This document shows positions 513 through 16,787 of a stretch of 64,000 bases of DNA, piece by piece. The DNA lies in the IMG/VR virus record IMGVR_UViG_3300017991_000003, positions 129,019 to 193,018 of that record; one strand, 5' to 3'. Source of the DNA: a virus. Position 1 is the stretch's first letter, and every line of letters begins with the position of its first letter. Under the pieces are notes generated by a model. The model was not told the DNA's origin. It saw nothing but the letters and a program-made list of their open reading frames with translations, and did no database searches. The translations under genes and the position numbers were made by a program.

Positions 513-524
513 ATTGTCCGTGGG

Positions 525-1777: not shown

Positions 1778-1779
1778 GA

Positions 1780-1941: not shown

Positions 1942-1943
1942 GA

Positions 1944-2474
1944 CTACATCTGGATCTTGACGGCGGCGATGAGCCCGGTGAGGACCGGGTCGCCCAGCTG
2001 GGCGGCGTACGTCTCGAGAGCCTCGAGGAGGGACGGCAGCGCGTCCGCGCTCTGGCCGTTGGTAGCGGGAGCGGCCTTGGCCGGCTTGTCGAAGTCGAGC
2101 TGCCCCTGCTTGGCGCCGGCGTAGCGCAGCGGGTCCGCGATGCGGCCGGCGTCCTCGGGCGAGTTGCCCTCGGCCAGGGCCCGCAAGTACGGCCACGCGA
2201 GCCTGTTGCGGTTGCGGTTGCGGTCGATCAGCGTCTGGCCAAGCTCGGTCAGCTTGACGTTGTGGAAGCGCGAGTACTCGATTGCCCCCGTCTTGCGGAT
2301 CTGATCCCGACGCGAGCCGGCGCTGCTCAGTCGGCGGAGCGGGTCGTCGGGGATGGAGAACTGCATGGCGTGGTTGTCCGGCCAGCTTCCGGTCATCTCC
2401 TTGTGGTGCCACATGAAGAGCAGGGCGGTCAGCAGGTTCTGGGTCACGGGCTTGGGCTTGTCTTGAGTGGTCAT
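1944..2474 (-). CDS. hypothetical protein (176 aa)
   Basis: Complete ORF; non-repetitive composition; 4-nt overlap with upstream gene. Confidence 0.5.
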   Translation of the reverse strand: MTTQDKPKPVTQNLLTALLFMWHHKEMTGSWPDNHAMQFSIPDDPLRRLSSAGSRRDQIRKTGAIEYSRFHNVKLTELGQTLIDRNRNRNRLAWPYLRALAEGNSPEDAGRIADPLRYAGAKQGQLDFDKPAKAAPATNGQSADALPSLLEALETYAAQLGDPVLTGLIAAVKIQM

Positions 2475-2809
2475 AGGTGGTCGGGGTTCGGGACGGTGTT
2501 GGTGAGGAGGATGTGCATCCAGGTACGTAGGGACTGCCAGCAGGGGTCGATGTGCTTCCCTTGCTGTCTATCCCACGTCGCCAGGGCGTGGAGCGTGTTC
2601 ATCAGATTCATGGGAGGGCCCGGCAGGTACTCATCATCTTCGAGATGCTTGGGGCGCGCCCCCTCGACTAGGGCGTCGTAGCCCTTCTCGGTCACGAAGG
2701 TGATTTCTTGGAGGGCTACTCCCTCCCAGGTCTCGCCTCCGAAGTCGACCTGGACCGGGATGATCGGCGTACCCGGCTCGAGGTTTTGAAAGGTGAGGCT
2801 CATACCCAC
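2471..2809 (-). CDS. hypothetical protein (112 aa)
   Basis: Complete ORF; coupled by overlaps to both neighbours. Confidence 0.5.
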   Translation of the reverse strand: MGMSLTFQNLEPGTPIIPVQVDFGGETWEGVALQEITFVTEKGYDALVEGARPKHLEDDEYLPGPPMNLMNTLHALATWDRQQGKHIDPCWQSLRTWMHILLTNTVPNPDHL

Positions 2810-3339
2810 TTCTCCTCGATGAGCTTACGGAGGGCCTTCAGGCACATCCGCTGCCGACCGGCGGTCATACGCATCTTCGTGAATCGGTGACTATCGATCA
2901 ACCGATCAACAAGGATCAGGGCGAGGCCCTTGTTCTCGTCGCCCGCTTGAACAGGGATCGACATCTTCTTGGGCTTCTGCGCCTTCTTACGCCCTTTCTT
3001 GAGGGCCTTCACCGCAGCGGGCTCCGAGGCGTAGCGCATGGCGTGCTTGATGACCGGCCACTCGTCCGGGTGAGCTCCGACTTGCTGAGCCAGGCGTTTA
3101 CCAAGCTCGGTCAGCTCGCCACGGTCCCGGCCCACCGTACGCATCAGGCCCATGTTCTTGAGCTCGGCCTTGTAGGTTCCGACGGTCGACGCCTTGAGCA
3201 GCGTCTTACCAGTCCCGCGTGGGAACCGGCGTGTGATCTGAACGCAAGGCCATCGCTTGACCTGCTGCTGGTAGTGGTAGTAGAAGGCTAGCAGGTCCTG
3301 CTGCCGCTTGCTCAGCTCTCGGATTGTTTCGACAAGCAT
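2800..3339 (-). CDS. hypothetical basic protein, possible DNA-binding regulator
   Basis: Complete ORF. N-terminal LSKRQQDLLAFYY resembles the sigma-70 region-4 / LuxR-type HTH pattern; Lys/Arg-rich segment KKGRKKAQKPKK. First gene of the leftward operon. Confidence 0.45.
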   Translation of the reverse strand: MLVETIRELSKRQQDLLAFYYHYQQQVKRWPCVQITRRFPRGTGKTLLKASTVGTYKAELKNMGLMRTVGRDRGELTELGKRLAQQVGAHPDEWPVIKHAMRYASEPAAVKALKKGRKKAQKPKKMSIPVQAGDENKGLALILVDRLIDSHRFTKMRMTAGRQRMCLKALRKLIEEKWV

Positions 3340-3985
3340 GGGTAGGTGGTGGGGTAGAGGTGATCGACATGAGACTTATGCCACAGTCCCTGGTCTAAAA
3401 AGAGAGCCCAACCCGAGGGGGTTGAGCTCTCTGGAAGTGCCCGGGCCCGCCCCTTTCATCGCAGTCCAACGAGTGGGACAAGGGGGATGCCGTAAGGGCC
3501 CGGGCTTGTAGGTGCGGAGCCGTGCCAGGATCACGGCCCCGCGGTGCTGTGGAAGTAGCTTGGCCCCCCAAGGAGGTGGGATGAGCCGCCGTAGCTACGA
3601 TGAGGCTCGCAGTCGGGCATGGTGCTACCCGGCCAACAGCGTGGCGATACGCCGAGACCCGGATCGCCGCCGGATAAGGTGGCCCCCGTCGTGACGTGCT
3701 CAGCTCACGCTCGAGGGGTTGGAAGACCTGCCATCTAGGATCAGTGGGATCCCCATCCCTTTGCACTCCTCGGAGAGTGTGCCGCTCCTGCGGCTGATGT
3801 GATGGCAGGTGGAAGACACCCACAGGTAGCAAGAACCGGCCTGGATGACCTCTTCGTTGCCCTAGGACCGGGGTCAGAGCCTTCCGGGCGCGCCTGTGGG
3901 TGATTGGGAAAGCCGAGCACGTCATCAACGCCGCTTGTGCGTCTGCTTGGTTGGTGGAGACGTGTGACGCTGCTCGGCTTTTGTA

Positions 3986-4072
3986 TGGTGCAGGAAGGGG
4001 GACTCGAACCCCCACGCCCGGGTGGGCACGTGGACCTAAACCACGGGCGTCTACCGATTCCGCCACTCCTGC
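3986..4072 (-). tRNA. tRNA-Leu (anticodon TAG), CCA encoded
   Basis: Reverse complement reads GCAGGAGTGGCGGAATCGGTAGACGCCCGTGGTTTAGGTCCACGTGCCCACCCGGGCGTGGGGGTTCGAGTCCCCCTTCCTGCACCA. 7-bp acceptor stem with one G-U pair, anticodon loop TTTAGGT, long variable arm, T-loop GGGGGTTCGAGTCCCCC. Confidence 0.85.
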
Positions 4073-4146
4073 ATGTAAAGGCATCGATGACCCGTGGGAG
4101 AGTTTCCCCACTCTGTGTTGAGCCCACAGATCATCGATGTGATTGA

Positions 4147-4232
4147 TGGTGCGGGAGGAGGGACTCGAACCCTCACGCCCGAAGGCAGTGGATTTTGAAT
4201 CCACCGTGTCTACCGATTCCAACCACCCCCGC
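4147..4232 (-). tRNA. tRNA-Leu (anticodon CAA), CCA encoded
   Basis: Reverse complement reads GCGGGGGTGGTTGGAATCGGTAGACACGGTGGATTCAAAATCCACTGCCTTCGGGCGTGAGGGTTCGAGTCCCTCCTCCCGCACCA. Anticodon loop TTCAAAA, long variable arm, canonical T-loop. Confidence 0.85.
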
Positions 4233-4446
4233 AGAGGGAGTGCCCCGCCGGCCGGAGCCGACGGGGCGAGTGCCTGTCTTTCCAGACTGTCCGCCCCGTT
4301 CGTATCATGCGCTAGGGGCTCTCGACAGTTCACTACGCCGCCATGCGGACGTCGGTGTTGGCATTTGAAAGCCAGAAGGTACAGACGCCACCGGGCAACT
4401 ATTCTCTGCTCGTAACTATACCCGCGAGCACGTCGGGTTGAAAGGT

Positions 4447-4475
4447 GGGCTGCCGAGGACGCGCCTCGACAGCCC
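4447..4475 (-). terminator. candidate terminator hairpin downstream of the leftward lipoprotein operon
   Basis: Nested inverted repeat GGGCTG-C-CGAGG-acgcg-CCTCG-A-CAGCCC about 12 nt past the stop of gene 4487..5107; no clean U-tract. Confidence 0.3.
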
Positions 4476-4486
4476 GTGGGGGATCA

Positions 4487-5107
4487 TCAGAAGTCGGGAC
4501 GCAGCGTGTCTGCCGCGATCAACGTCAACTCCGGAGCGGACGGAGCTCCGGTCACGACAGCCTGGGGATCCATCTGCGCCACGGAGTGCAGCTCGTGCGT
4601 CTCCATGAGTCTAAGTAGCGCAAAGAATCCGTAGGCGCGCAGCTCGTCCTCTTCTGAGTCGGAGCGCGGCGCGTGCCTGATGAGGGCCCCCGGGACGAGG
4701 TCTGCGTCGGACAGCACCACCCAGTGATCTGTCCAGACAATCGGCTCCAGTTGAGGAACCAGCTGCGAAGCCACCAGGTCGGCTAGCCCTTCACTCAGCG
4801 GGAAGGGACGCTGAGGAGCGCACAGGTGCGTAAGCTCATGTGCGATCACGAAGCGCTGCCGGTACGGCGGCTGATCAAGCCAGTTCGGATGGAGCACGAG
4901 GTAGACCTCGTCCGCGGCATGGGCCACCAGAGCAAGCCTGTCGATCTCACTCGACACGCACACCTGGGGGACCACACCTCGGTCATGCCCGATCATCTGC
5001 ACCACCTGTGGACGCAGTTCATCGAGCAGACCCTCAGCACGCTCGACGGCTGGGTGAGCGCTGGCGCAGGCAGCCAGCGGCAGGCAGGAGATGATCAAGG
5101 ACTTCAC
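4487..5107 (-). CDS. putative lipoprotein with HExxH zinc-metallopeptidase motif
   Basis: GTG start at 5107 (GTGA overlap with upstream stop) gives VKSLIISCLPLAAC with a lipobox-like LAAC; HELTH motif in FVIAHELTHLC. The longer track ORF 4487..5257 has an Arg-rich N-terminus that looks spurious. Confidence 0.55.
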   Translation of the reverse strand: MKSLIISCLPLAACASAHPAVERAEGLLDELRPQVVQMIGHDRGVVPQVCVSSEIDRLALVAHAADEVYLVLHPNWLDQPPYRQRFVIAHELTHLCAPQRPFPLSEGLADLVASQLVPQLEPIVWTDHWVVLSDADLVPGALIRHAPRSDSEEDELRAYGFFALLRLMETHELHSVAQMDPQAVVTGAPSAPELTLIAADTLRPDF

Positions 5108-6006
5108 GGGATCGGAACCCCCTGCTTCTCGATGGTCAGCGGGGTCACGAACCGCTCGCCCTGCGCGTACTGCATCAGGTCGAAGCGGATGCTCTCGAGC
5201 AGTCCCTCGCTGCCGAGGGGTAGGAGGCCGGCGTCGATGACGACCTCGCTGCCCCACAGCGCGGAGCCGGCCCGGGTCTTGGACCAGGCCAGGGCGTGCT
5301 GGCTGCCGTCTTGGTAGCCGAGGCTACCGCTGGCGACCATGTCGGAGCTGTCGTTCAGCGCCCGGATCAGGAGCTTGCCCTGCCCGTGGTCGACGTAGGC
5401 GGTGACGGTGTAGGCCCAGAGAACGTCGTCGATCAGCTGGTTGATGGCCCAGTCCTCGCCGCCTGTGAGGTACCAGGCCTGCACGATGGCGTGGGCCTCG
5501 ACCTCGCTGGCGGCGGTCACCAGGAACTCACCGTAGGCGTCCATGTCGTCCTGGTGGTCGTAGGCGTCCACGGACGTCAAGGAGACCAGGAACTGCTGGA
5601 GCTCGTGGGGCTTGCTGAGATCGATGATCACCTGGTTGCCGCCGAGGGGACCGGACGTGGGTCGGCCGACGAGCTCGAGCTGCTGGGTCGCGTCGGCCAA
5701 GGTGCCTGAGAAGGTGGTGACCACGGAGCCCTCCGGAAGGAGGACCGCCGTACCGGGGGCGTACACCCCGGCGTAGCGGGCGCCGGACTTGGTGATGACC
5801 TCGACCCGGAGGTTGGTCGGGATGTCGGCCGGCACGTCACCTTGGAGGGTGCCGTCACCCTTCTTCTCCAGGCTGGCTTCCCAGCCCGAGAGCTGGACGG
5901 TGATGCCGTCACCCTCTTCGAGGTCGAGGACTTCCTCAGTCGCCGTACAGGCGACGAAGCTGAACATCAGCAGGATGAGGAGGATGAACGTGTGTTGGAT
6001 GCGCAT
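5104..6006 (-). CDS. putative secreted lipoprotein (301 aa)
   Basis: Internal ATG at 6006 gives MRIQHTFILLILLMFSFVACTATEE, a signal-peptide-like hydrophobic stretch ending in a lipobox-like VAC. The upstream 35 aa of the track ORF are not signal-like. Confidence 0.55.
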   Translation of the reverse strand: MRIQHTFILLILLMFSFVACTATEEVLDLEEGDGITVQLSGWEASLEKKGDGTLQGDVPADIPTNLRVEVITKSGARYAGVYAPGTAVLLPEGSVVTTFSGTLADATQQLELVGRPTSGPLGGNQVIIDLSKPHELQQFLVSLTSVDAYDHQDDMDAYGEFLVTAASEVEAHAIVQAWYLTGGEDWAINQLIDDVLWAYTVTAYVDHGQGKLLIRALNDSSDMVASGSLGYQDGSQHALAWSKTRAGSALWGSEVVIDAGLLPLGSEGLLESIRFDLMQYAQGERFVTPLTIEKQGVPIP

Positions 6007-6091
6007 GGCGTCTCCTGTTGGGTTGGGTGGGAACAGTGGAGGCTCGAAGCCTCGGGGTATCAGTAGACTCGTGACACAAACCCGATAAGGT

Positions 6092-6532
6092 TTACAGCGA
6101 ATCCAGGGCATCTAGGGCGTCTGTGAGGCCCTCAGCAGCCTCTTGAGCAGCGTCCGCCTTGGCGCTCTTCTTCCGCTTCTTCCCCTTCTTCTTGTGATGC
6201 AGGGCGGCCAGGCGAGCCCCCTGCTCCCGCTGAGCGTCCGTCACGGACTCCTCGCATAGGGTCTTGTACTCCGCCTCGGTGGGGATGACGCCCTCGGGTC
6301 GCGTCTTGGTGTCCGCGTAGGGGCGGTGGGCCCAGAAGAAGCAGACGTGGTCCGGGCAGTTCTTGATGGCGTCCCGGTAGCCCTCGTTGCCGACACAGGC
6401 TCGGCAGTTGAGGTCGACAGCGGATCGGAGGCTGCTACCGTGATCAGCTTTGACGGCGACGGTGGGGCGGGCGAGGCGGACGTCGTTCTCGACGCAATCG
6501 ATGATGTCAGGCTTGGTGGTCATGTGTGGCAC
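6092..6532 (-). CDS. hypothetical Cys-rich basic protein (146 aa)
   Basis: Complete ORF; six Cys including CRAC and CPDHVC; Lys-rich HHKKKGKKRKKSAK near the C-terminus suggests nucleic-acid binding. Divergent from the rightward operon starting at 6608. Confidence 0.5.
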   Translation of the reverse strand: MPHMTTKPDIIDCVENDVRLARPTVAVKADHGSSLRSAVDLNCRACVGNEGYRDAIKNCPDHVCFFWAHRPYADTKTRPEGVIPTEAEYKTLCEESVTDAQREQGARLAALHHKKKGKKRKKSAKADAAQEAAEGLTDALDALDSL

Positions 6533-6607
6533 TGGCTAGGAGTGTCAGGGTGGGAAAACTGTCTCCATATCTTGACAGAGGGGCGCCGGCTAGGCACGAT
6601 CCCTGGC
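6533..6607. promoter_or_regulatory. divergent intergenic region with inverted repeat CTGTC-N10-GACAG and TTGACA hexamer
   Basis: 75-bp gap between divergent gene starts 6532 (-) and 6608 (+); contains ctgtctccatatcttgacag. Promoter elements not confidently assignable. Confidence 0.3.
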
Positions 6608-7123
6608 ATGGAAACGACAACGACAGAGGCCCGCCCTGAGCTACAGCTTCGGCCGTTGGCCGGGCGGGTGATGATTCGAGTGGACGAGGCCCCCACGATG
6701 AGCGCAGGTACGCGAGGCCGTCAGGTCTATCTACCCGAGAGCGTCCAGAAGGAGGAGAAGGCGAACTACCGGTTCGGTACGGTCGTGGCCCTAGGGGACC
6801 CCGCGCTGCATCCGAAGACCGGCAGGCCGATCCCGTGGGCTGTGCATGTAGGCACCAAGGTCTGCTTCCAGTTCGGGGCTGACCTTACAGGTGAGCGAGA
6901 GCTCCAGTACACAGGAGGCGTGGCCCATGCGGTGTGCTTTGCTGAGGATCTGATTTACGCCATCGAGGATGATTATGAGATTCAGCCGACTCCCGTATGC
7001 CCCAACAGCGTAGGGGTTGCGCTACGCCGCGCTCTGATGAACGACGACTGGCTGACCGAGGAGCAGGTTGACACCCTGAGCCGGCGGCTCGCGTGCACGA
7101 TTGCCGGGGTTGTGCCCGCGTGA
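6608..7123 (+). CDS. GroES-like co-chaperonin (Cpn10 family) with C-terminal extension
   Basis: ATG at 6608; LRPLAGRVMIRVDEAPTMSAG...FGTVVALGDPA...PWAVHVGTKVCF...AEDLIYAIED aligns by eye with GroES (IRPLHDRVIVKR..TKSAGGIVL..GEVLAVGNG..VKVGDIVIF..ESDILAIVE). Confidence 0.6.
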   Translation: METTTTEARPELQLRPLAGRVMIRVDEAPTMSAGTRGRQVYLPESVQKEEKANYRFGTVVALGDPALHPKTGRPIPWAVHVGTKVCFQFGADLTGERELQYTGGVAHAVCFAEDLIYAIEDDYEIQPTPVCPNSVGVALRRALMNDDWLTEEQVDTLSRRLACTIAGVVPA

Positions 7124-7758
7124 GAATCGGCCGCACTTCCGATCTAGCGCCCTGGCCGCTCTTCATCGGCTTCTACACCCCGGAGTACGAGGAAGAGGCC
7201 GGGGAGCTTCGTAAGACCCTGGACGCGTTCGGGCTGCCACACGAGATCGAACCCGTCGAGTCCACGGGTAGCTGGTGGCTCAACACGCAGATCAAGGCTC
7301 AGATCATTTTGCTCAAGCTACGGGATCACCTGGGTCGACCGCTGGTCTACCTGGACTGCGATGCCCGAGTCAGGCAGGCTCCTACCTTGTTCCGCTCCCT
7401 GCATCACCAGTGCGACTTCGCGGCTCACTTCCGACCGGATCGACGATTCGAATGCGGTCGAGAGCTTTTGAGCGGGACGCTGTACTTCAGCGGCTCGCCG
7501 GCTTGCCAGGGCCTGGTACAGGCTTGGATCGATGAGAATGAGCGCCAGGCTGCGATCAAGAGTAGCAACAAGCTCCGCCTCATGGATCAGAGAACCTTGC
7601 AGACGGTCCTGGCTAAGGAGATCGAGGAGTACGGTCTTATGTTCACCGAGCTCCCTGCTACCTACGTTCAGATCTTCGACATCATGCGCGACGCCGGCGA
7701 CCCGGTGATCGAGCATCTCCAGGCCAGCCGCCGATTGAGGAACAAGGTTGGTCACTAG
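7120..7758 (+). CDS. putative glycosyltransferase (nucleotide-diphospho-sugar transferase-like, GT-A fold)
   Basis: GTG at 7120 overlaps the upstream TGA (alternative GTG at 7093). LVYLDCDARV and overall pattern resemble DxD-type sugar transferases; weak. Confidence 0.4.
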   Translation: MRIGRTSDLAPWPLFIGFYTPEYEEEAGELRKTLDAFGLPHEIEPVESTGSWWLNTQIKAQIILLKLRDHLGRPLVYLDCDARVRQAPTLFRSLHHQCDFAAHFRPDRRFECGRELLSGTLYFSGSPACQGLVQAWIDENERQAAIKSSNKLRLMDQRTLQTVLAKEIEEYGLMFTELPATYVQIFDIMRDAGDPVIEHLQASRRLRNKVGH

Positions 7759-7770
7759 ACTCATGACTCA

Positions 7771-8529
7771 ATGAAGCGACTGATCTACCAGGTCTGCGTT
7801 GGCCCGCCTGACCCGCTCTACGACAAGTGCACGCGCACTGTTGCGGCCTACTGCAAGCGCCTCGGCATCGCGTACATCAAGCAGACCGAGCCGGTCCTGA
7901 AGATCCGCCCGAACCCCGCTACGAGCGGGAGAAGCCAGAACGCTGTTGAACGACTAGGGTACCTGCCGATCTTCGAGAAGGAGAACGCACTCGCCCACCT
8001 TGGTGAGTTCGATCAGGTGGCCATTATCGACTCCGATATCTGGATCAGGGAGGAGGCACCCAACATCTTCGAGGAGCTCGAGGAGGGTGTTGACTTCATG
8101 GGGGTGGTCGAGCGAACCGCACCCATCACGCCGCAGTATGATCGGAAGCTCAAGAGCTACGCGCGCGGCCAGTACGGTCGTCCGGACTTCCCCTTCATGA
8201 ACATGGGGCTCATGCTCATGAACAAGAGCCTGCGCCGCTTCTGCCCCGAGCCTCCTCGGGAGTTTCTGGCGCGTCCGGAGTTCCAGGCCTTCGTGGATGG
8301 GCGGGGGGCCTACAAGTGGAGCACGGACCAGACCCTGCTCAACACCTGGTTGACCAGCGATCCCGACATGGTCGTGAAGCCTCTCGACTGGCGGTGGAAC
8401 GCCCTGTACGGGGCGCTGGTGCCCGGGTCGATAGAACAGGCCCACTTCGTTCACTTCTTCCTCAAGAACCACCTGGATAGCCAGGATCCCGACAAGCTCC
8501 TTCAGACACAAGGCCGCAAACGCGTTTAG
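7771..8529 (+). CDS. glycosyltransferase family 8-like protein
   Basis: AIIDSDIWI (DxD), FMNMGLMLMN, STDQTLLNTWL and HFVHFFLK match the order of conserved GT8 motifs. Confidence 0.55.
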   Translation: MKRLIYQVCVGPPDPLYDKCTRTVAAYCKRLGIAYIKQTEPVLKIRPNPATSGRSQNAVERLGYLPIFEKENALAHLGEFDQVAIIDSDIWIREEAPNIFEELEEGVDFMGVVERTAPITPQYDRKLKSYARGQYGRPDFPFMNMGLMLMNKSLRRFCPEPPREFLARPEFQAFVDGRGAYKWSTDQTLLNTWLTSDPDMVVKPLDWRWNALYGALVPGSIEQAHFVHFFLKNHLDSQDPDKLLQTQGRKRV

Positions 8530-8533
8530 CCCC

Positions 8534-9211
8534 ATGAGCAAAGTACCACCCCTATTCATTCACGTACCGAAGACCGGTGGCATGTCCGTGCACCATGGAC
8601 TAGGCCGCCTGATCCGAGAGACGCTGTCTCGAGACAAGCTGAAGTCTCTGGACTACGCGGCGACGATCGAGCAGCACATGCGCTCCAAGGGTGAGCCTAC
8701 TCCGGGGTACCGTCATGCCCGGTGGCGTGACGTCAAGCCGGGGTGGCGGGATAAGGGCCGCTGTTTCACGGTGCTGCGCAATCCGTGGTCCCGTGTGGTC
8801 AGTCGCTACCGGTTCGGACTCAATACCTGGGCGACGCGTCCCTACAACTACACGAACTTCGAGGAGTTTCTTGCGGAGCATGAGGAGTGGGGCCAAGAGC
8901 CGTACTACTGGCACCGCGCCGTGCGGGGCTGGTACCCTGCGGTGGATCACGTGACGGACGGCCAGGGCAACCTCAAGTGCGATGTTCTGCGTACGGAGCA
9001 CCTGGACGATGACATCTGGGCCTACTTCGGGAAGCGGCTACCTCCGCGCCGACGCAACGTCACGCGCGGCGATGCCGTGGACTACAAGACCTTCTACGAC
9101 GATCGAACCATCCAGCTGGTGGCAGACTGGTATGCCGAGGACATTGAGATGTTCGGCTTTGACTTCGACACGCCGGCGACGAAGAACCTGTGGGAGGGCC
9201 TAGGAGCATGA
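8534..9211 (+). CDS. sulfotransferase (PAPS-dependent, carbohydrate sulfotransferase-like)
   Basis: N-terminal LFIHVPKTGGMSV matches the 5'-phosphosulfate-binding motif (PKTGTT-like); TVLRNPWSRVVSRY matches the 3'-phosphate-binding motif (RDPxxRxxS). Confidence 0.65.
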   Translation: MSKVPPLFIHVPKTGGMSVHHGLGRLIRETLSRDKLKSLDYAATIEQHMRSKGEPTPGYRHARWRDVKPGWRDKGRCFTVLRNPWSRVVSRYRFGLNTWATRPYNYTNFEEFLAEHEEWGQEPYYWHRAVRGWYPAVDHVTDGQGNLKCDVLRTEHLDDDIWAYFGKRLPPRRRNVTRGDAVDYKTFYDDRTIQLVADWYAEDIEMFGFDFDTPATKNLWEGLGA

Positions 9212-9765
9212 TGGTTGGCAAGAACCAGGGCAGTCTCCTGGTTGTGCAGCAGATCCCAGAGAACAGCGTGGGTGCCGAGCTCGGCGTCTGGCGCGGGGAC
9301 ACATCAGCCCGCTTCCTAGCTAGCGGTAAGATCAAGCACTTGCACCTGGTGGATGCTTGGAGTCCCGACCCTTACTACGGCATCGAAGGCTACCGAGAGA
9401 AGTACGCCAAGCTGGTCGGATCGGGTGATCTCGACGCCTTTCGCGCCTACTACGACGCGGTCCTAGCCGGTGTCCGCAGGCGGTTTCAAGGCCAGCCCGT
9501 TACGATCCACCAAACCACTGTGCACGAGTTTCTGACTGAGCCCCCGGAGGATCTCGACTGGGTCTACGTGGACGCGAGTCACGAGTACCTCGACGTCCTT
9601 GATGATCTCGAGCGCTGTGCCCGTCACGTGGATCTGATCTTTGGGGATGACTACGGCAACAAGCCAGGGGTGGTTCGCGCTGTCGACGAGTTTGATCGGA
9701 CGCACCCCGAGTGGCACCTCCAGGTCCTGGGCAAGAACCAGTACCGCCTCGATAGGAAGGTCTGA
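9208..9765 (+). CDS. class I SAM-dependent methyltransferase (O-methyltransferase, Methyltransf_24-like)
   Basis: ATG at 9208 overlaps upstream TGA (ATGA). GAELGVWRGDTS glycine-rich motif, VDAW, DLDWVYVDASHEY and GDDY resemble the TylF/MycF-type fold. Confidence 0.55.
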   Translation: MMVGKNQGSLLVVQQIPENSVGAELGVWRGDTSARFLASGKIKHLHLVDAWSPDPYYGIEGYREKYAKLVGSGDLDAFRAYYDAVLAGVRRRFQGQPVTIHQTTVHEFLTEPPEDLDWVYVDASHEYLDVLDDLERCARHVDLIFGDDYGNKPGVVRAVDEFDRTHPEWHLQVLGKNQYRLDRKV

Positions 9766-10271
9766 TGCACCCATCAAGCAAGGCCAATATGAGGGAGGCC
9801 TGGGCACTCGTTCCCGACCCCCACCGCGTCGGGGACGTCCTTGATGTAGGCGGCGGTCGTGGCGGGGAATACCAGGAAATCTGGAAAGGGTGTGCTAGCT
9901 ACCGAACGGCTGACATTGCAGGTGACTGCGACCTCTTGATGCCTGGTGAGTACGAGATTCCACTTCCGGATGATTCGATCGATGTGGTGATTAGCGGCCA
10001 GACACTGGAGCATGTCCGCAACCCTTTCCGCCTCGTCACCGAGATGCGCCGGGTACTGAAGCCCGGTGGCTACGTGGTGATCATCGCCCCGTCCGCGGGC
10101 CCGGCCCATTTCAAGATCGACTGCTGGCGCTTCGTCCGGGATGCGTTCCGGGCCATCGCCCACGAGTGCGATCTAGAGGTTGTTGCCGATTGGATCTATA
10201 CCGGGGACTCTGGCCGAGGTCCTAACAAGCAGTGGAACGATCACACCTTCGTGGGGAGGAAGCCCGAGTGA
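9765..10271 (+). CDS. class I SAM-dependent methyltransferase (Methyltransf_11-like)
   Basis: VLDVGGGRG (motif I), DVVISGQTLEHV and LKPGGYVVI (motif III-like); 1-nt overlap with upstream stop. Confidence 0.6.
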   Translation: MHPSSKANMREAWALVPDPHRVGDVLDVGGGRGGEYQEIWKGCASYRTADIAGDCDLLMPGEYEIPLPDDSIDVVISGQTLEHVRNPFRLVTEMRRVLKPGGYVVIIAPSAGPAHFKIDCWRFVRDAFRAIAHECDLEVVADWIYTGDSGRGPNKQWNDHTFVGRKPE

Positions 10272-10969
10272 ATGCGTATGCCATCACGCTCTTCGGTAAC
10301 GAGACCAGCACCCAGAGCGTTGACAAGCTCTTTGAGTCCCATGTGGCGCTTGAGCAGCATTTCGATCTGATCCGCTTCCCGGCCATCACTCCTGACCAGA
10401 ACCAGGAGATCATGGCGGAGGAGCGCCTGGTGTGGACCTATCCCTGGGAAAACAACCGGCTGGATGGGATCACTGGCTTGAAGCTGCATCCCTACGCCAC
10501 ACGTGATCGGGGTGCGCGGATCGCCTGCTTCCTATCGCACTACCACCTCTGGAAGCTGGCCTGCGAGACTGGGGAGTGGGTGATGATCCTGGAGGACGAC
10601 ACGGTATTCACCAAGCACCTAGACCTAGACAGCCTGCCTTACCGTGAGTGGAGCGCCGTCGGCATCAACAACCCACTAGGGGCGACGCGTCGAGCGCCTG
10701 TGTTCCACGACAAGGTCGTGGCGCAGCGTCCGACTCCGATCATCGAGACCCCGTGGGTTGATGATGAAGTCAGGACCCCGCAGGGGCTGGCCGGCCACAG
10801 TGCCTACATGATCAGCCCTGAGCTGGCTAAGGACCTGATCCATCGAGCCCGTCATGCGGGTTGCTGGCCTAACGACGCATTGATGTGCAAGCAGCTGTAC
10901 CCTGGGAAGCTCGGGGTCACAACCGAGTTCTACACCCGAGTCCAGCAGACCCCGAGTACTCTGGCATGA
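10268..10969 (+). CDS. glycosyltransferase family 25-like protein
   Basis: GTG at 10268 (GTGA overlap). AYAITLFGNETS, IACFLSHYHLWKLA and VMILEDDTVF match GT25 (LPS/LOS glycosyltransferase) signature order. Confidence 0.55.
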   Translation: MNAYAITLFGNETSTQSVDKLFESHVALEQHFDLIRFPAITPDQNQEIMAEERLVWTYPWENNRLDGITGLKLHPYATRDRGARIACFLSHYHLWKLACETGEWVMILEDDTVFTKHLDLDSLPYREWSAVGINNPLGATRRAPVFHDKVVAQRPTPIIETPWVDDEVRTPQGLAGHSAYMISPELAKDLIHRARHAGCWPNDALMCKQLYPGKLGVTTEFYTRVQQTPSTLA

Positions 10970-11628
10970 AGGCGCGCGTCATCACCCTGATCCACAACAA
11001 GCGATCTGTTCAGGTAGCGAATCGGTGCATTGAGAGCGCTGCAAGGTTCGGCGTTGAGGTTGATATCTTCCCGGCCATCAGGGCGGCGGATAACCCCAAG
11101 GCCCTGATGTTCGAGCGGAAGTTCTCGATGAAGGGGTTTGAGGACAATGAGTACTCGCGTCTTGAGCCGTGCCTGGCTACGTTCCTCTCCCACTCTCGCC
11201 TATGGGAGCTTGCGGTGCTGCTAAAGGAGGCAGTCCTGATCCTCGAGCACGACGCTGTGTTCCAGGCTCCGCTCCCGGAGATGATCGAGGAGCGGGTGAA
11301 GATGCTCTGCAATCTGGGCAAACCGAGCTTCGGCTCCTTCAAGACCCCGAAAGAGGGGCTAGGCCCGTTCGTGTCCAAGCCCGGCGGCTATCTAGGCGGC
11401 GCCCACGCGTACCTGGTCCAGCCTGAGGCCGCTGAGGTGATGTTGGAGAAGGCCAAGACAGAGGCGGAGCCGGCCGATGTGTTCATCCAGAAGAAGCGCT
11501 TCCCCTGGATGACTGAGTACTACCCGTGGCCGGTGATCTGCGATGACTCCTTCTCCACCATCCAGAAGCCCGCAGGTTGCACGGCCAAGCACAACAAGGT
11601 CGAGATCATCGATCAGGATGAATCGTGA
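10966..11628 (+). CDS. glycosyltransferase family 25-like protein (second copy, divergent)
   Basis: ATG at 10966 (ATGA overlap). MKARVITLIHNKRS, ATFLSHSRLWELA and VLILEHDAVF mirror the GT25 pattern of the adjacent gene. Confidence 0.55.
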   Translation: MKARVITLIHNKRSVQVANRCIESAARFGVEVDIFPAIRAADNPKALMFERKFSMKGFEDNEYSRLEPCLATFLSHSRLWELAVLLKEAVLILEHDAVFQAPLPEMIEERVKMLCNLGKPSFGSFKTPKEGLGPFVSKPGGYLGGAHAYLVQPEAAEVMLEKAKTEAEPADVFIQKKRFPWMTEYYPWPVICDDSFSTIQKPAGCTAKHNKVEIIDQDES

Positions 11629-11861
11629 GGCTGCTAAGTCGCGCCTACTGGGCGGAGGTCGTCGAGTGCGACTACTGCCCTAATCCTGAAGAACCGCCCG
11701 CGCTTGTTTGTGGTGTCTGCGGCGATACGGGGAAAGCCCCGCGATGGCGTCGGGCTTGGCGCGATGTCTTCCGGTGTAGTGCTCTGGTGGGCCATCCTGA
11801 TAGGAGCCCTGCTTGTGGGGGCGTTGGCTCAGTAAAAACAACGCGTTGTTTTGTCGGGTAG
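11625..11861 (+). CDS. small Cys-rich protein, possible zinc ribbon
   Basis: GTG start overlapping upstream stop; CDYC...CGVC pair of CxxC motifs; last gene of the rightward operon. Confidence 0.35.
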   Translation: MRLLSRAYWAEVVECDYCPNPEEPPALVCGVCGDTGKAPRWRRAWRDVFRCSALVGHPDRSPACGGVGSVKTTRCFVG

Positions 11862-11884
11862 GTAGCTAAAACAACGTGTTGTTA
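11835..11884. terminator. pair of AT-rich palindromes between convergent operons (candidate bidirectional terminator or operator)
   Basis: Perfect palindrome AAAACAACGCGTTGTTTT (11835-11852) and near-copy AAAACAACGTGTTGTT (11868-11883), conspicuously AT-rich in a GC-rich genome; sit between the 3' ends of the plus operon and the minus gene 11922..12179. Confidence 0.4.
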
Positions 11885-11921
11885 GGCACCCCAGCGCCCG
11901 AGGGCGCCGGGGGCCTGGTTC

Positions 11922-12179
11922 TCAGGGGCGGAGCCGCAGCCCCCGAGAGGTGACCAGCACCTTACGGTGCGGGACCTTGGGGAGCTTCGGCAGGGGCGGG
12001 AGGTCGACGTCGGTGTCGACGACCGCCTCCACCAGGGACTCGCCGTCCGCCCCGCTGATGTGGAGGCGGCGGTGCTCGCTGTTCTCGGTCACGTGGACCG
12101 AGCCCAGCGGGGTTTTGACCTTGGCGATGGTTCGCTCGGGGGCGATCCACGCCAAGATCTCGTCGAAGAACCCCATCAC
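11922..12179 (-). CDS. hypothetical protein (85 aa)
   Basis: Complete ORF, last gene of the leftward operon, coupled to the upstream gene by a 4-nt overlap. Confidence 0.45.
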   Translation of the reverse strand: MMGFFDEILAWIAPERTIAKVKTPLGSVHVTENSEHRRLHISGADGESLVEAVVDTDVDLPPLPKLPKVPHRKVLVTSRGLRLRP

Positions 12180-12358
12180 TTGCAGAGCAGCGGGTTCTTC
12201 CCCCGCTGCTTGATGCGGCGCACCCTCGCGCGGAGGGTGTGCTCGATGGAGAGGGGCTGCCCGCGGAGGCGGGAGGTGACGGCGATGTCTAGGCCGCGCA
12301 TGGGGGAGATCTTCCCCCGGCGGACCTTGAGCATCACCTGGCGACTGAGATTGCTCAT
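12176..12358 (-). CDS. small basic hypothetical protein (60 aa)
   Basis: Complete ORF; Arg/Lys-rich; 4-nt overlaps on both sides. Confidence 0.4.
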   Translation of the reverse strand: MSNLSRQVMLKVRRGKISPMRGLDIAVTSRLRGQPLSIEHTLRARVRRIKQRGKNPLLCK

Positions 12359-12555
12359 GTGGTCAGGTGGTCGGCGAAGGCCCAGGTGACGGCCTCCGCG
12401 AAGTTGGGGGTGAGGGTGGCGTAGCCCGTCTCTACGTGGGAGACGTGGGACTGACTGAACCCGATACGCGCAGCGAACTGCGCTTGGGACAGGCCCAGCC
12501 CCTTCCTGATCCAGCGGACCAGGCGGGGGCTGAGCTCGACGGTGGTGGCGATCAC
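12355..12555 (-). CDS. helix-turn-helix transcriptional regulator (XRE/Cro-CI family)
   Basis: LGLSQAQFAARIGFSQSHVSHVETG is a classic HTH_3 motif; 66 aa. Confidence 0.6.
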   Translation of the reverse strand: MIATTVELSPRLVRWIRKGLGLSQAQFAARIGFSQSHVSHVETGYATLTPNFAEAVTWAFADHLTT

Positions 12556-12839
12556 GACGCCTCCTCCGCGTCCGCCCAGGCTCGGGCGATCTGACGCATG
12601 GGAGCCCTCTGGGAGAGGGGCCGGACGGTCACGAGAGTGATGAGACGCTTGTGGCCGATCGTGATGAGCGGCTGCTCGTAGCCGCCCCGCGAGGCGGCCT
12701 CACGCACCTTCTTTTTGAAGGTGGTGAGCTGCGGGCTGTGAGCAGGCAGGCCGATCAGGGATTGACCTACTTCCTCGAACACCTCGCAGATGACCTCGGG
12801 CATGAGGGGCCGCAGCGGTTCTCGCATGGGGTTCTTCAT
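12552..12839 (-). CDS. hypothetical protein (95 aa)
   Basis: Internal ATG (MKNPMREPLRPLMPEVICEVFEE...) of track ORF 12552..13226; ATGA overlap with the stop of the upstream gene. The upstream 129 aa of the track ORF are Arg/His/Pro-rich read-through. Confidence 0.45.
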   Translation of the reverse strand: MKNPMREPLRPLMPEVICEVFEEVGQSLIGLPAHSPQLTTFKKKVREAASRGGYEQPLITIGHKRLITLVTVRPLSQRAPMRQIARAWADAEEAS

Positions 12840-13180
12840 CGGATCTCGAACCCCAGCTTTTCGGCGAGTTCGACCGTGGCGGTGCGGCTCGTGTGGTGGC
12901 GGGAGAACGCCACCTCGCCGGTGGCGAGGTCCACGTACCAGCGGTTGCCGCCGCCAATGCCGTAGATCGTCACGTGACCGGACTGGCCACGCATACGCAG
13001 GGCGTGGCCCCACGTGTATTGAGAGGACTCGGGGTCCTCGATGGAGTCCATCTGGCTCAGGAGCCAGGCGACCCCGTTTGCGTCGCGGCGCTCCTCGTCG
13101 TAGGTCGACGAGAAGCCCTCGACTTCTGCCATGTCGATGAGCGTCTCGGCGCTCATGATACGACCGGTCAGGGTGGTCAT
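12836..13180 (-). CDS. hypothetical protein (114 aa)
   Basis: Complete ORF, non-repetitive composition; first gene of the leftward operon, directly preceded by the 42-bp repeat. Confidence 0.5.
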   Translation of the reverse strand: MTTLTGRIMSAETLIDMAEVEGFSSTYDEERRDANGVAWLLSQMDSIEDPESSQYTWGHALRMRGQSGHVTIYGIGGGNRWYVDLATGEVAFSRHHTSRTATVELAEKLGFEIR

Positions 13181-13183
13181 GGT

Positions 13184-13225
13184 GTTGGGTGGTGAGGGTG
13201 TCTCCGGGTAGACATCCCCGGATCA
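13184..13225 (-). promoter_or_regulatory. 42-bp conserved upstream element, copy 1 (identical to 14851-14892)
   Basis: GTTGGGTGGTGAGGGTGTCTCCGGGTAGACATCCCCGGATCA, 3 nt upstream of the start codon at 13180. In gene sense it contains hairpin TCCGGG-gatgtcta-CCCGGA and a C-rich tract CACCCTCACCACCCAAC before ATG. Confidence 0.6.
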
Positions 13226-13339
13226 TTAGACTTATGCCCTAACCTCTCCCCCTCCTGGCGCTTTTGGTCCATACTGGGGGCACAACTTGACGCCCTTCGG
13301 GGCCGTCTCCCACGGATAACACAACTCCAGGAGAAGAGC

Positions 13340-14044
13340 ATGCTGCTCAACAACTTCAGCGTCCGCGTGCCTGAGGGACGCGAGCACCACCAGTACGTGG
13401 AGCTCCAGCACGACACCAAGTACAGCCTCGTCCTCGCCAACAAGAACACCGAGGACTGCGACGCCCGGGTAGAGATCGATGGGCAGGCTGTTGGGACCTG
13501 GCGGATCAAGGCCAAGTCCACGGTCCGGCTCGAGAGGCCGGTTGACTCGGAGGGTAGGTTTACCTTCTACAAACAAGGCACCGAGGAGGCGAGCAAGGCT
13601 CAGCTCGAGGCAGTCGGCGAGGACAAGCTCGGCCTGGTCTGCGTGTGGTTCACCCCGGCTAAGCGACAGCAGGTACCGCAGTGGATCAGTACCCCGCAGT
13701 GGGGCAGTCACTACCCGTCGCCTACGCCCCCGCCGATCCCCTTGGATTACCAAGTCGACTGCAACACGATCCAGACGGCTTTCTTCTGCGCGAGCTCTGC
13801 GGATATGCCTTCGATGAGCCAGAAGAGCGTGGGCTCGATCACGCGAGAGGCGCGCCTTATGTCTTCAGGAGGCACGGGCCTCTCGGGTAAGAGCACACAG
13901 CAGTTCGTTGAGGCTCAAGAGCTCGACCTAGACATGGATCGACAGACCTTCATCGCCCTGCGCCTCGTGTGCGTGGAGAAGGAGGAGTCGGACATCCGTC
14001 CTCTGGTGCAGCGAGCCACCCCTGTACCGCCGCCCCTGAAGTGA
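13340..14044 (+). CDS. hypothetical protein (234 aa), stand-alone rightward gene
   Basis: Complete ORF with GGAG 10 nt before ATG; flanked by leftward operons on both sides; Pro-rich segment PSPTPPPIPLDY. Confidence 0.5.
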   Translation: MLLNNFSVRVPEGREHHQYVELQHDTKYSLVLANKNTEDCDARVEIDGQAVGTWRIKAKSTVRLERPVDSEGRFTFYKQGTEEASKAQLEAVGEDKLGLVCVWFTPAKRQQVPQWISTPQWGSHYPSPTPPPIPLDYQVDCNTIQTAFFCASSADMPSMSQKSVGSITREARLMSSGGTGLSGKSTQQFVEAQELDLDMDRQTFIALRLVCVEKEESDIRPLVQRATPVPPPLK

Positions 14045-14058
14045 GGCAAAAAAGAAGG

Positions 14059-14081
14059 CTGGCACTGGCTCCCAGTGTCAG
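14059..14081 (-). repeat. inverted-repeat element copy E (CTGACACTGG-gag-CCAGTGCCA in minus orientation), terminator-like
   Basis: Plus strand reads ctggcactggctcccagtgtcag; on the minus strand it is followed by CCTTCTTTTTT (U-tract). Lies about 16 nt beyond the stop of gene 14097..14465 and shortly after the stop of plus gene 13340..14044. Confidence 0.5.
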
Positions 14082-14096
14082 TCTTCTTCTCGCGGC

Positions 14097-14465
14097 TCAC
14101 TCGGAGACGGCTCCAGCGGCTCGCATGGCCAGCGAGTGCAGGTAGTCGTACCGGTCCTTGAAGACATCGAAGGCCACAGTGCGGAGCTCGGCCTGGACCC
14201 AGGTGGCGTACTCGACCGGCGGTTCTTTCTGGATCAGCTCTTCAACGATCTCCCGAGGGAGGTAGGCGATGATCCAGTTCATGTCGTCCACGCGTCCCCC
14301 AGATCCCGGAGGTCCGAAGCCCAGCTGGTGCACAGCGTACTGAGCGCTTTCGATGAAGTCCTCGGGAACGTCGAAGTCGTCTCGCCGGCCAGCAGCGAGC
14401 ACCATGGCGGCCCAAGCCGCGTGGATACCTTGCCGGTACCCGCGCAGGTATTCGTCTTTAGTCAT
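14097..14465 (-). CDS. hypothetical protein (122 aa)
   Basis: Complete ORF; 8-nt overlap with upstream gene. Confidence 0.5.
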   Translation of the reverse strand: MTKDEYLRGYRQGIHAAWAAMVLAAGRRDDFDVPEDFIESAQYAVHQLGFGPPGSGGRVDDMNWIIAYLPREIVEELIQKEPPVEYATWVQAELRTVAFDVFKDRYDYLHSLAMRAAGAVSE

Positions 14466-14850
14466 GGTTAGGAGGGGTTTGGCAGGTCTGGTAGATGCGG
14501 GCCATCTGGTCGAGCGCCGTCAACCGGATGGTGATGATCTTGCGGGCCACGTTTGCGACGGTCGCGCCACTGCCCTGCCGCATCGACAGCTTGTGCGGCC
14601 GGGTCTGAAGGAGCTCAACGAGGTCCGTGTGAGCGAGGCGCTCGCGGAGGTCGGTGACGTACTCCGTGAGGAAGCCCTGAAGCTCCCCCGGCGGGTTGGC
14701 GGTCAGGACTGCCTTGGCCCTCGTGGGCGCGGTCCCGTCGAGCTGGCTCTGGAGGCGATCCCCGAAGGGAATCTGGGAGACCAGCTCGGCCCAGAGCCAG
14801 TCCCGGGCCAGGACCGCTGCCTGGCTGTAGATCTTGTCGGCGTGCTTCAT
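14458..14850 (-). CDS. hypothetical protein (130 aa)
   Basis: Complete ORF; start codon immediately adjacent to the second copy of the 42-bp element. Confidence 0.5.
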   Translation of the reverse strand: MKHADKIYSQAAVLARDWLWAELVSQIPFGDRLQSQLDGTAPTRAKAVLTANPPGELQGFLTEYVTDLRERLAHTDLVELLQTRPHKLSMRQGSGATVANVARKIITIRLTALDQMARIYQTCQTPPNHD

Positions 14851-14892
14851 GTTGGGTGGTGAGGGTGTCTCCGGGTAGACATCCCCGGATCA
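14851..14892 (-). promoter_or_regulatory. 42-bp conserved upstream element, copy 2
   Basis: Exact 42/42 match to 13184-13225, abutting the ATG at 14850. Similarity continues weakly for about 13 more nt (aaggactcatgac vs ttagacttatgcc). Confidence 0.6.
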
Positions 14893-15032
14893 AAGGACTC
14901 ATGACAGACCCAAGAGATGGGTTTGGCCCGCTAGTCCCTGGCACACATCCCGGCCTAGGCCCTAGACTTAGGACGAACCCTAAGGGCTCTTTCTGGGCCC
15001 CAAGTCCCCTTCTAACCGGATCCTGAGACACC

Positions 15033-15302
15033 ATGGACGCCGCCACTCTGTTCGAATCCCAGCTCCGCGAGAGCCTGGAGCGCCACAACACCCCCTCCAT
15101 CATGGACAAGATCGCCGCTTTCCACGCGGAGCAGGGCGATCTCGTCGAAGACGTTGTTGAGGAGCTCCCCCTGGAAGACCGACTCGCCAAGGTCGCTGAG
15201 GCCATCTCTGCTCGCCTGAACAGCGAGCCCGAGGAGCCCGAGGAGCCCGGGGAGGTCGAGGAGACCCCCGAGCAGAGCCTGCTCGAGCGCCTCCGCGGCT
15301 AG
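15033..15302 (+). CDS. small acidic hypothetical protein (89 aa)
   Basis: Complete ORF; Glu/Asp-rich with EPEEPEEPGEVEE; first gene of the rightward structural operon. Confidence 0.45.
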   Translation: MDAATLFESQLRESLERHNTPSIMDKIAAFHAEQGDLVEDVVEELPLEDRLAKVAEAISARLNSEPEEPEEPGEVEETPEQSLLERLRG

Positions 15303-15306
15303 ACCG

Positions 15307-15711
15307 GTGGATCTGGGGGTCGTTCAGGTCTCTGATCAAGTCCTGACCCCGGGCCTGGGGGACGCTCCGGTCCGGGTGTCAGGTCTTCGTGCCCTCGTAC
15401 AGCAGGCGGTCATCGAGCTCATCTCGAACCCCCTGCCGGAGCGAGGGCGCGGGGCTGGGCTAGCTCAGCTCGTTGCAGCCCTGCCTCCCCAGAACCAGGC
15501 ACAAGCTCGTGGCACCTTTGCGCAGGCCGTGAGCTCCGCCAAGACGCACATCTTGGCCAACCAGCGCTACGCTTCCAACCTCACCGCGAACGAGCGGCTG
15601 CAAGACATGACCCTGCTTCGGGCCGAGCTCAATGGGCTCGTCTGGGAGATCGACATCAGGATCACCAACGTAGCCGGCGAGTCCGCCACCTTTGCCCTGC
15701 CGGTCAGCTGA
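15307..15711 (+). CDS. hypothetical protein (134 aa)
   Basis: GTG start 4 nt after upstream stop; 1-nt overlap with the next gene. Confidence 0.45.
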   Translation: MDLGVVQVSDQVLTPGLGDAPVRVSGLRALVQQAVIELISNPLPERGRGAGLAQLVAALPPQNQAQARGTFAQAVSSAKTHILANQRYASNLTANERLQDMTLLRAELNGLVWEIDIRITNVAGESATFALPVS

Positions 15712-16778: not shown

Positions 16779-16787
16779 GGATTAGAG

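Follow-up and report, generated by a model that had tools for sequence, protein, structure and literature searches.

A predicted PAPS-dependent sulfotransferase in a glycosyltransferase operon of an uncultured large phage, and the gene cassette that carries it in marine phages

Viral sulfotransferases are often listed as "auxiliary metabolic genes" without known function, and a gene of this kind in a viral metagenomic record of IMG/VR (IMGVR_UViG_3300017991_000003) raises the question of what such a phage enzyme would sulfate. The gene lies at positions 8534..9211 (+ strand) of the 64,000-nucleotide stretch that was analyzed as a whole, hereafter the window. An earlier note on this DNA had proposed a phage-encoded sulfotransferase with two PAPS-binding motifs, had considered sulfated glycans to be rare in bacteria, and had left the acceptor as an open question.

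The sulfotransferase and its phage setting

The ORF (ATG start, TGA stop) encodes 225 amino acids, and two public metagenome gene calls give a protein identical to its product. The HMM search suggested in the earlier note was run and returned Pfam Sulfotransfer_2 (PF03567; E-value 5.9e-6), scoring 27.0 bits against a curated gathering cut-off of 22 bits and covering residues 7–210 of the protein and positions 12–252 of the 252 in the profile; Sulfotransfer_1 matched below threshold over the 3′-PB region. In PHROGs, phrog_3347 matched the full length of the protein (E-value 4.1e-9), and NCBIfam contained no model for it. Most of the 650 homologues found at E ≤1e-3 carry a precomputed PF03567 assignment. 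The two PAPS-binding motifs are present as claimed, LFIHVPKTGGMSV at residues 7–19 (nt 8552–8590) and TVLRNPWSRVVSRY at residues 79–92 (nt 8768–8809). The former contains the 5′-PSB motif P12-K13-T14-G15-G16-M17-S18 (nt 8567–8587, + strand), a PKxGxT/S loop that includes the catalytic lysine, and the latter the 3′-PB motif, in which R82 is followed by a serine eight residues on (S90; nt 8777–8803, + strand). In an alignment of 56 sequences sharing 43–62% identity, residues F8, H10, P12, K13, G16, H61, R82, N83, P84, W85, S90, R91, and H127 were invariant. H61, in the segment RHARW (nt 8714–8716, + strand), is a candidate catalytic histidine, judged solely from its invariance and spacing. It lies 21 residues ahead of R82, which we take to be similar to the His-to-Arg spacing in SULT1E1, and its segment presumably resembles the HADW segment of HS6ST.

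When the alignment profile was searched against the PDB, it retrieved human SULT1C2 (2ad1; E-value 1.3e-5), with RNPWsRVVS placed on RNPKDnMVS in the 3′-PB segment. An AlphaFold2 model built with the same alignment (pLDDT 92.0, pTM 0.89), which supplied the structure prediction that the earlier note had recommended, has the alpha/beta sulfotransferase fold with a P-loop-like PAPS site, and the top 31 matches of this model in a Foldseek search of the PDB were all PAPS-dependent sulfotransferases. A PDB search with the single sequence had returned designed TIM barrels at an E-value of about 2e-6. These matches were spurious: they arose from a single short YRxxxWRDxKxxW match occurring four times over in these symmetric proteins, and with the family profile as query the barrels were gone.

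Because every defining feature that could be examined was found, the protein is assigned, from its sequence and predicted fold, to the PAPS-dependent sulfotransferase superfamily and to Pfam Sulfotransfer_2, as a PAPS-type sulfotransferase with an intact predicted donor site. With both a family match and a P-loop-like fold in hand, the sulfotransferase interpretation of the earlier note therefore stands. The subfamily has no characterized or solved member. Homology gives no guide to the substrate class, since the nearest solved structures share less than 20% identity with the protein and its Pfam score, at 27 bits, is modest. The name of phrog_3347, "Galactose-3-O-sulfotransferase," is likewise not a substrate assignment, because no Gal-3-O-sulfotransferase Pfam family was listed at E ≤0.1, at which Sulfotransfer_2 and the sub-threshold Sulfotransfer_1 were the only matches. 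Neither sequence similarity nor close structural similarity to the Stf0/LpsS-type lipopolysaccharide (LPS) sulfotransferases was found.

The claim that the gene is phage-encoded was also borne out. The window has a GC content of about 0.63 and contains a baseplate-wedge match in PHROGs (phrog_6, E-value 1.4e-17), two tRNA-Leu genes, and giant ORFs of 1262–3406 amino acids; no cellular housekeeping genes were found in it. Neither a megablast search of the window against 50,697 phage records nor a tblastn search with its baseplate protein returned a match. Nearly all of the large ORFs lacked any PHROGs or Pfam assignment, and PDB sequence searches with the 340-, 762-, and 1262-amino-acid proteins yielded nothing useful. 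The identical sulfotransferase protein occurs on contigs of up to 193 kb; an exact 46-mer taken from its gene had no match in IMG/VR. The closest relative of the window phage in IMG/VR is a syntenic 183-kb contig (L172), which has in common with the window the frame of the module described below and the downstream genes for proteins of 134, 1262, and 340 amino acids. A 145-kb contig (L004) encodes a sulfotransferase 63% identical to that of the window and keeps the order of the surrounding eight genes gene for gene. We accept the window as part of an uncultured large phage from an undescribed high-GC lineage.

An eight-gene operon and a conserved cassette

The sulfotransferase gene is the fourth of eight genes on the + strand (6698–11628) that overlap by 4 or 1 nt or are separated by gaps of at most 12 nt, and it is co-transcribed with three or four glycosyltransferases (GTs) and two methyltransferases. 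The first gene (6698..7123) encodes a GroES/Cpn10-like protein of 141 amino acids, for which the Pfam Cpn10 score (26.5 bits against a cut-off of 21.1) was computed on the longer ORF 6326–7123, the start at 6698 being the gene call in public records. A homologue with 51% identity occupies the same position in L004, and the gene occurs in the high-GC lineage only. The second gene (7120..7758) encodes a 212-amino-acid putative GT-A glycosyltransferase with an invariant D79-x-D81. This assignment is weak: the Pfam Nucleotid_trans match is sub-threshold (E-value 0.075), hhalign gave a 37% probability against the GT8-like family with the DxD motifs aligned, and a PDB sequence search was without a match. 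Homologues of this protein are encoded in L004, L172, and L093, and a pairwise comparison with the 224-amino-acid putative GT of the T4-like loci found no similarity. The third gene (7771..8529) encodes a GT8-like retaining GT-A glycosyltransferase of 252 amino acids with an invariant D87-x-D89; across loci, it is the constant partner of the sulfotransferase and usually lies directly upstream.

Downstream, the gene for a 185-amino-acid SAM methyltransferase (Methyltransf_24; 9208..9765; PF13578, 35.2 bits against a cut-off of 26.3) starts within the sulfotransferase stop, with an overlap of 4 nt (ATGA). It is followed by a second SAM methyltransferase gene (Methyltransf_11, 168 amino acids; 9765..10271; PF08241, E-value 7e-14) and by two GT25 glycosyltransferase genes, GT25a (233 amino acids; 10268..10969; PF01755, E-value 8e-13) and GT25b (220 amino acids; 10966..11628; PF01755, E-value 1.6e-9). 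No transmembrane segments were found in any of the eight proteins, and the module contains no flippase, polymerase, initiating phosphoglycosyl transferase, or exporter. A search of the window found no promoter-like site for the operon.

Searched with the sulfotransferase alignment, IMG/VR yielded relatives on at least 315 viral contigs. Among the best 80 of these loci (41–50% identity, GC 0.32–0.65), the GT8-like gene was present in 76, GT25a in 67, GT25b in 63, and a Methyltransf_24-type gene in 63; two further downstream genes, for a weakly Nucleotid_trans-like and a weakly MptE-like protein, were kept in 54 and 51 of the 80. Absences of partner genes in this set of 80 fell mostly at contig ends. 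The core of the GT8-like gene, the sulfotransferase, and two GT25 genes recurs in at least 315 IMG/VR contigs, T4-like marine myoviruses included. One abundant carrier lineage is a T4-like marine myovirus of about 150 kb with a GC content of 0.37, the RNaseH of which shares 43–46% identity with those of OM43 phage Melnitz, Pelagibacter phage HTVC008M, and Synechococcus myoviruses. When 10 kb on either side was compared between the window lineage and this T4-like lineage, the module genes alone were common to both, so the cassette is portable. When the 50,697 deposited phage genomes were searched by tblastn, neither the GT8-like nor the GT25a protein found a match, and the sulfotransferase had two matches only, at 23% identity, in uncultured huge phages. 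In the locus L009, the T4-type late-promoter motif TATAAATA was absent from the module and its count in the locus was at chance level; sigma-70-like sites were not enriched, and two good ones lay in intergenic regions bordering this set of genes.

When the GT8-like gene was used for sampling, it was found on at least 556 IMG/VR contigs. In the 48 of these loci with at least 3 kb downstream, GT25 was kept in 44, whereas a sulfotransferase of the window type was present in only nine. In L172, the genes for the 212-amino-acid protein, the GT8-like protein, and both GT25 enzymes are kept, and the sulfotransferase and two methyltransferase genes are replaced by another methyltransferase, a weak GT8 paralogue, a weak GT25-like gene, and a Methyltransf_24/CmcI-like gene. 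Other occupants of the same slot are a different Sulfotransfer_2 gene together with a Sulfotransfer_4 gene (43 and 73 bits; L190), a polysaccharide pyruvyl transferase (52.9 bits; L175), and a full-length UDP-sulfoquinovose-synthase-like protein (L194; NF041015, E-value 1.4e-111, its 373 bits lying below the equivalog cut-off of 575); GalE-like epimerases occupy the slot in other phages. The sulfotransferase is an optional decorating gene in a hypervariable slot within a fixed GT frame, and anionic substituents recur in that slot. Since three anionic routes (sulfate, pyruvate ketal, and a sulfoquinovose-synthase-like enzyme) are found there, these data suggest that negative charge itself is the selected trait.

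The existence of a phage sulfotransferase is not new by itself, because such genes have already been listed as auxiliary genes in phrog_3347 and reported as auxiliary metabolic genes in viromes (PMC8290583; PMC10580990). The gene alone is ordinary. More interesting as a lead are the cassette, with its conserved frame and variable slot, and how widely it is spread among uncultured marine phages; a limited full-text literature search turned up no description of either. Seen in this conserved context, here a set of eight small soluble proteins, an annotation that said little becomes a hypothesis open to experiment.

The acceptor and its carrier

A scan with one genome per species collected 259 cellular relatives of the sulfotransferase. 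Those with 40–51% identity belong to Stappiaceae (Roseibium, Labrenzia, and Stappia), Breoghania, and Rhodobacteraceae. In at least nine Roseibium and Labrenzia loci (Roseibium: L250), the gene is surrounded by a deoxy-sugar polysaccharide cluster with an NTP-transferase, a 4,6-dehydratase, an RmlC-like protein, C- and O-methyltransferases, an acetyltransferase, GT2, and GT4. In Rhodobacter sp. Har01 (L251), it closes an operon that reads GT4, MT11, MT21, GT25, GT4, GT25, sulfotransferase, with its start overlapping the GT25 stop; operons of this type occur in at least six other Rhodobacteraceae or related loci, and the Methyltransf_11 protein of the window shares 40% identity with the MT11 of the Rhodobacter operon. 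The Stappia and Breoghania orthologues are solitary, so the enzyme is not strictly dependent on its cassette partners. The impression that the cellular orthologues are generally solitary came from querying with window proteins only, at E ≤1e-5; inspection of the neighborhoods and tblastn searches with the cellular neighbors proved it wrong for most Roseibium and Rhodobacteraceae loci. Within the cellular set, the complete phage-type core (GT8-like, sulfotransferase, GT25a, and GT25b) was found only on three low-GC "MAG" contigs (L028, L029, and L041), which look like mis-binned phage DNA.

These cellular loci also bear on the statement in the earlier note that sulfated glycans are rare in bacteria. 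It is too strong for marine bacteria, in which sulfotransferases recur in SAR11 surface-polysaccharide islands (bioRxiv 10.64898/2026.04.03.716430) and the cellular orthologues sit in polysaccharide clusters. The question of the acceptor, which that note left open, has been narrowed to a glycan: the cellular orthologues mostly lie in polysaccharide clusters, which makes a glycan the likely acceptor, and the position of the phage gene amid a conserved operon of glycosyl- and methyltransferases makes it most likely that the enzyme sulfates a phage-directed sugar chain. A non-glycan or lipid alternative would be either a small metabolite, sulfated independently of the neighboring genes, or an anionic membrane glycolipid, other than LPS or glycoprotein, made by the cassette. 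We consider this improbable in view of the near-obligate synteny with GTs in phages (among the best 80 of at least 315 loci), the start/stop overlaps inside the operon, and the polysaccharide clusters around most cellular orthologues.

We propose that the gene probably encodes a soluble cytoplasmic PAPS-dependent O-sulfotransferase, of a predicted Sulfotransfer_2/heparan-sulfate-6-O-sulfotransferase-like type, that serves as an optional decorator of a glycan built by the neighboring GTs. The GT8-like enzyme, the two GT25 enzymes, and probably the fourth GT-A would assemble a short oligosaccharide from host UDP-sugars, which the two SAM methyltransferases would O-methylate. The sulfotransferase would then transfer sulfate from host-made PAPS to a hydroxyl of the sugar; a motif scan of the window for the PAPS pathway returned out-of-frame noise only, and the donor would therefore be made by the host. 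In the active site, K13 and the PKTGG loop would hold the 5′-phosphosulfate and R82 and S90 the 3′-phosphate, with H61 as the probable general base. The product would be an anionic, methylated glycan in the cytoplasm of the infected cell.

As to the carrier of this glycan, we lean slightly, and tentatively, toward a glycolipid of the host envelope, of the LPS/LOS-core type, built at the inner face of the membrane. GT8 and GT25 are classical families of the LOS outer core, and LgtC was a strong structural match of the GT8-like protein. The operon enzymes look like peripheral proteins of the cytoplasm, and the cellular sulfotransferase operons point in the same direction. Sulfated LPS has a precedent in Sinorhizobium meliloti, through LpsS of a different family (PMC12445080), and remodeling of the host surface is the standing hypothesis for the LPS clusters of cyanophages (PMC12801897). 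If the envelope glycolipid is the carrier, the surface of the infected cell would be changed, and lytic marine phages could rewrite receptors during infection.

Several of our observations argue against an envelope carrier and favor placement of the glycan on the virion itself. Virus-encoded, host-independent glycosylation is known from chloroviruses, mimiviruses, and some mycobacteriophages, and a cassette of this nature could decorate capsid, tail, or fiber proteins in the cytoplasm before lysis, with the sulfotransferase adding negative charge; we regard this as nearly as likely as the envelope carrier. If virions are the carrier, virus-encoded glycosylation, together with sulfation, would be extended to marine phages. 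In structural comparison, the GT8-like protein came closest to the chlorovirus capsid-glycan enzyme A64R, and among the top 120 matches listed for the GT8-like family there was no named cellular member. The frame GTs seem to be phage-specific, and the constant GT set is kept across phages with GC contents of 0.31–0.65, a range that suggests very different hosts (as inferred from GC alone). The T4-like carriers are presumably strictly lytic. In addition, Ser/Thr-rich giant proteins follow the module in the window lineage, and the fibril-glycan clusters of giant viruses join GTs, methyl- and pyruvyl-transferases, and sulfate metabolism (PMC9614988). A broader form of this idea, in which a portable phage-specific cassette gives the virions a coat of anionic glycans in hundreds of lineages of uncultured marine phages, both T4-like ones and large phages unrelated to them, strikes us as rather unlikely; the slot genes suggest that such coats would be sulfated, pyruvylated, or, from one slot gene, sulfoquinovose-bearing. 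If it is true, the gene would supply the first demonstrated case of a sulfotransferase that modifies a phage particle, the cassette would be a bacterial-virus counterpart of chlorovirus and mimivirus self-glycosylation, and virion stickiness, host recognition, or decay in seawater would probably be affected.

T-even phages carry sugars on hydroxymethylated bases, and the cassette GTs could likewise add sugars to hydroxymethylated bases of the phage DNA, which the sulfotransferase and methyltransferases would decorate further, thereby evading restriction. This function is very improbable. LPS-related phage GTs from metaviromes do build mono- to tri-saccharides on 5hmC (bioRxiv 10.1101/2023.12.21.572611), the Methyltransf_24 protein matches phrog_2675, labeled "DNA methyltransferase," and a 5′-deoxynucleotidase gene lies upstream in some T4-like loci. 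However, neither the precomputed Pfam assignments of all called genes at positions 1–19211 of the window nor our own scans identified a C5-methyltransferase, TET/5mYOX, or thymidylate-synthase-like hydroxymethylase, and the slot contains polysaccharide-specific enzymes (pyruvyl transferase and sulfoquinovose synthase); DNA hypermodification is unlikely because of this lack of nearby 5hmC-pathway genes and the nature of the slot enzymes. The cellular orthologues, moreover, are located in ordinary polysaccharide loci. To our knowledge, four to eight GTs exceed the requirements of any known DNA glycan.

Comparison with known systems

Among known sulfotransferases, the Sulfotransfer_2 carbohydrate enzymes, such as the heparan-sulfate 6-O- and 2-O-sulfotransferases (PDB 5t03 and 3f5f), share 15–19% identity with the phage enzyme. 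The latter differs from them in its bacterial or phage origin and in being a compact protein of 225 amino acids with no membrane anchor and no lumenal location. The full-length profile match, phrog_3347, is phage-borne like the window gene and is placed by PHROGs in the category "moron, auxiliary metabolic gene," whereas the OM43-phage examples among the reported viral sulfotransferases belong to Sulfotransfer_3, a family different from that of the window enzyme. The rhizobial enzymes LpsS (S. meliloti; PMC12445080) and NodH sulfate a surface or signal glycan of alphaproteobacteria in a PAPS-type reaction and provide a precedent for sulfated LPS, but the window sulfotransferase is not of the Stf0/LpsS type. 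The cellular operon of the Har01 type resembles the phage cassette in its orthologous sulfotransferase (43–51% identity), two GT25 genes, and MT11; it differs in having GT4 enzymes and no GT8-like protein, and its GT25s are only 26–32% identical to those of the phages.

For viral systems, glycosylation of mycobacteriophage virions is reportedly the subject of Freeman et al. 2023. The A064R/A061L genes of PBCV-1 and the fibril glycan clusters of Megavirinae are examples of virus-encoded virion glycosylation (PMC9614988), and the window operon, like the A064R system, combines a GT structurally akin to a capsid-glycan GT with an associated O-methyltransferase. These systems, in contrast, belong to eukaryotic viruses or actinophages, and the identity is only 13%. 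The cyanomyoviruses P-SSM2, S-SCSM1, and S-SCSM2R contain LPS or "cell wall synthesis and modification" clusters that have been proposed to remodel the host surface (PMC12801897). Like the carriers of the cassette, these are T4-like marine phages with clustered GTs (GT25 included), epimerases, and methyltransferases, and the clustering of several GTs with sugar-modifying enzymes that marks a phage glycan-modification cluster is found in the eight-gene operon as well. The cassette of the window is nevertheless unlike the cyanomyovirus clusters: its GT8-like and GT25a proteins had no sequence match in the 50,697 phage records searched, and it is set apart by its fixed frame, its variable slot, and sulfation.

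Gene content at the variable decoration position in other phages

The position that the sulfotransferase holds in the window was occupied in the T4-like marine phage locus L194 by a full-length UDP-sulfoquinovose-synthase-like gene (10783–11922), which matched NF041015 with an E-value of 1.4e−111; its score of 373 bits fell short of the equivalog cut-off (575). This locus lies on a 152.7-kb IMG/VR contig (IMGVR_UViG_3300033183_000354), and a GalE-like epimerase gene was found near the synthase-like gene. The synthase-like gene would be a second route to a sulfur-containing anionic sugar. In two other phage loci, the same position contained two sulfotransferases unlike that of the window (L190, 13118–14199; Sulfotransfer_2, 43 bits, and Sulfotransfer_4, 73 bits) or a polysaccharide pyruvyl transferase (L175, 12848–13549; 52.9 bits). 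Among the phage genes at this position, anionic decoration keeps recurring. In one T4-like lineage (L009), the sulfotransferase and methyltransferase genes are separated by an inserted gene (8686–9087) whose 133-aa product is lipoprotein-like, carries a glycine-zipper motif, and gave a sub-threshold Rick_17kDa_Anti match.

Occurrences in bacterial chromosomes and metagenome-assembled genomes

The solitary sulfotransferases of two Stappia species (L011 and L026, at about 8001–8744) shared 72% identity, and every gene flanking them was 94–98% identical. Either the Stappia sulfotransferase has been replaced or it is evolving much faster than the genes around it. The complete phage-type core, consisting of the GT8-like, sulfotransferase, and two GT25 genes, was present on each of three contigs binned as Microbacteriaceae (L028, GC 0.43), Flavobacteriaceae (L029, GC 0.31), and Rhodobacteraceae (L041, GC 0.37); all three probably derive from phages and were wrongly assigned to bacterial genome bins.

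Surroundings of the glycan operon in the window

The first gene of the operon is GroES/Cpn10-like in both high-GC phages, that of the window (6698–7123, +) and the relative L004, whose copy shows 51% identity. Divergent from the operon is a 300-aa ORF (5104–6006, −) that had no family match; its N-terminus, MRIQHTFILLILLMFSFVAC, resembles a lipoprotein signal peptide, and this phage protein may be directed to the envelope. An adjacent pair of tRNA-Leu genes (3986–4072 and 4147–4232, −; anticodons tag and caa) was also detected. Downstream, the operon is followed by a DUF5661 protein (15711–16778) and then by two lysine-poor proteins with about 22% Ser/Thr (1262 aa, 16788–20576, and 340 aa, 21698–22720, both +), which had no family, PHROG, or PDB match. 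In the relative L172, Ser/Thr-rich proteins directly follow the module (16497–19976). If the glycan ends up on virions, these Ser/Thr-rich proteins are candidate acceptors.

The presumed tail/baseplate region contains a baseplate-wedge homologue (31942–34029) upstream of three giant ORFs of 3406 aa (34036–44256), 1410 aa (52127–56359), and 1512 aa (57743–62281), all on the + strand and none with a PHROG match; the only family signal was a sub-threshold TIG/IPT match in the 3406-aa ORF. Among these ORFs lies a gene for a 238-aa PAS-domain protein (49612–50328, +; PF00989, E-value 8e−11), a sensor-type domain that is unusual for a phage structural block.
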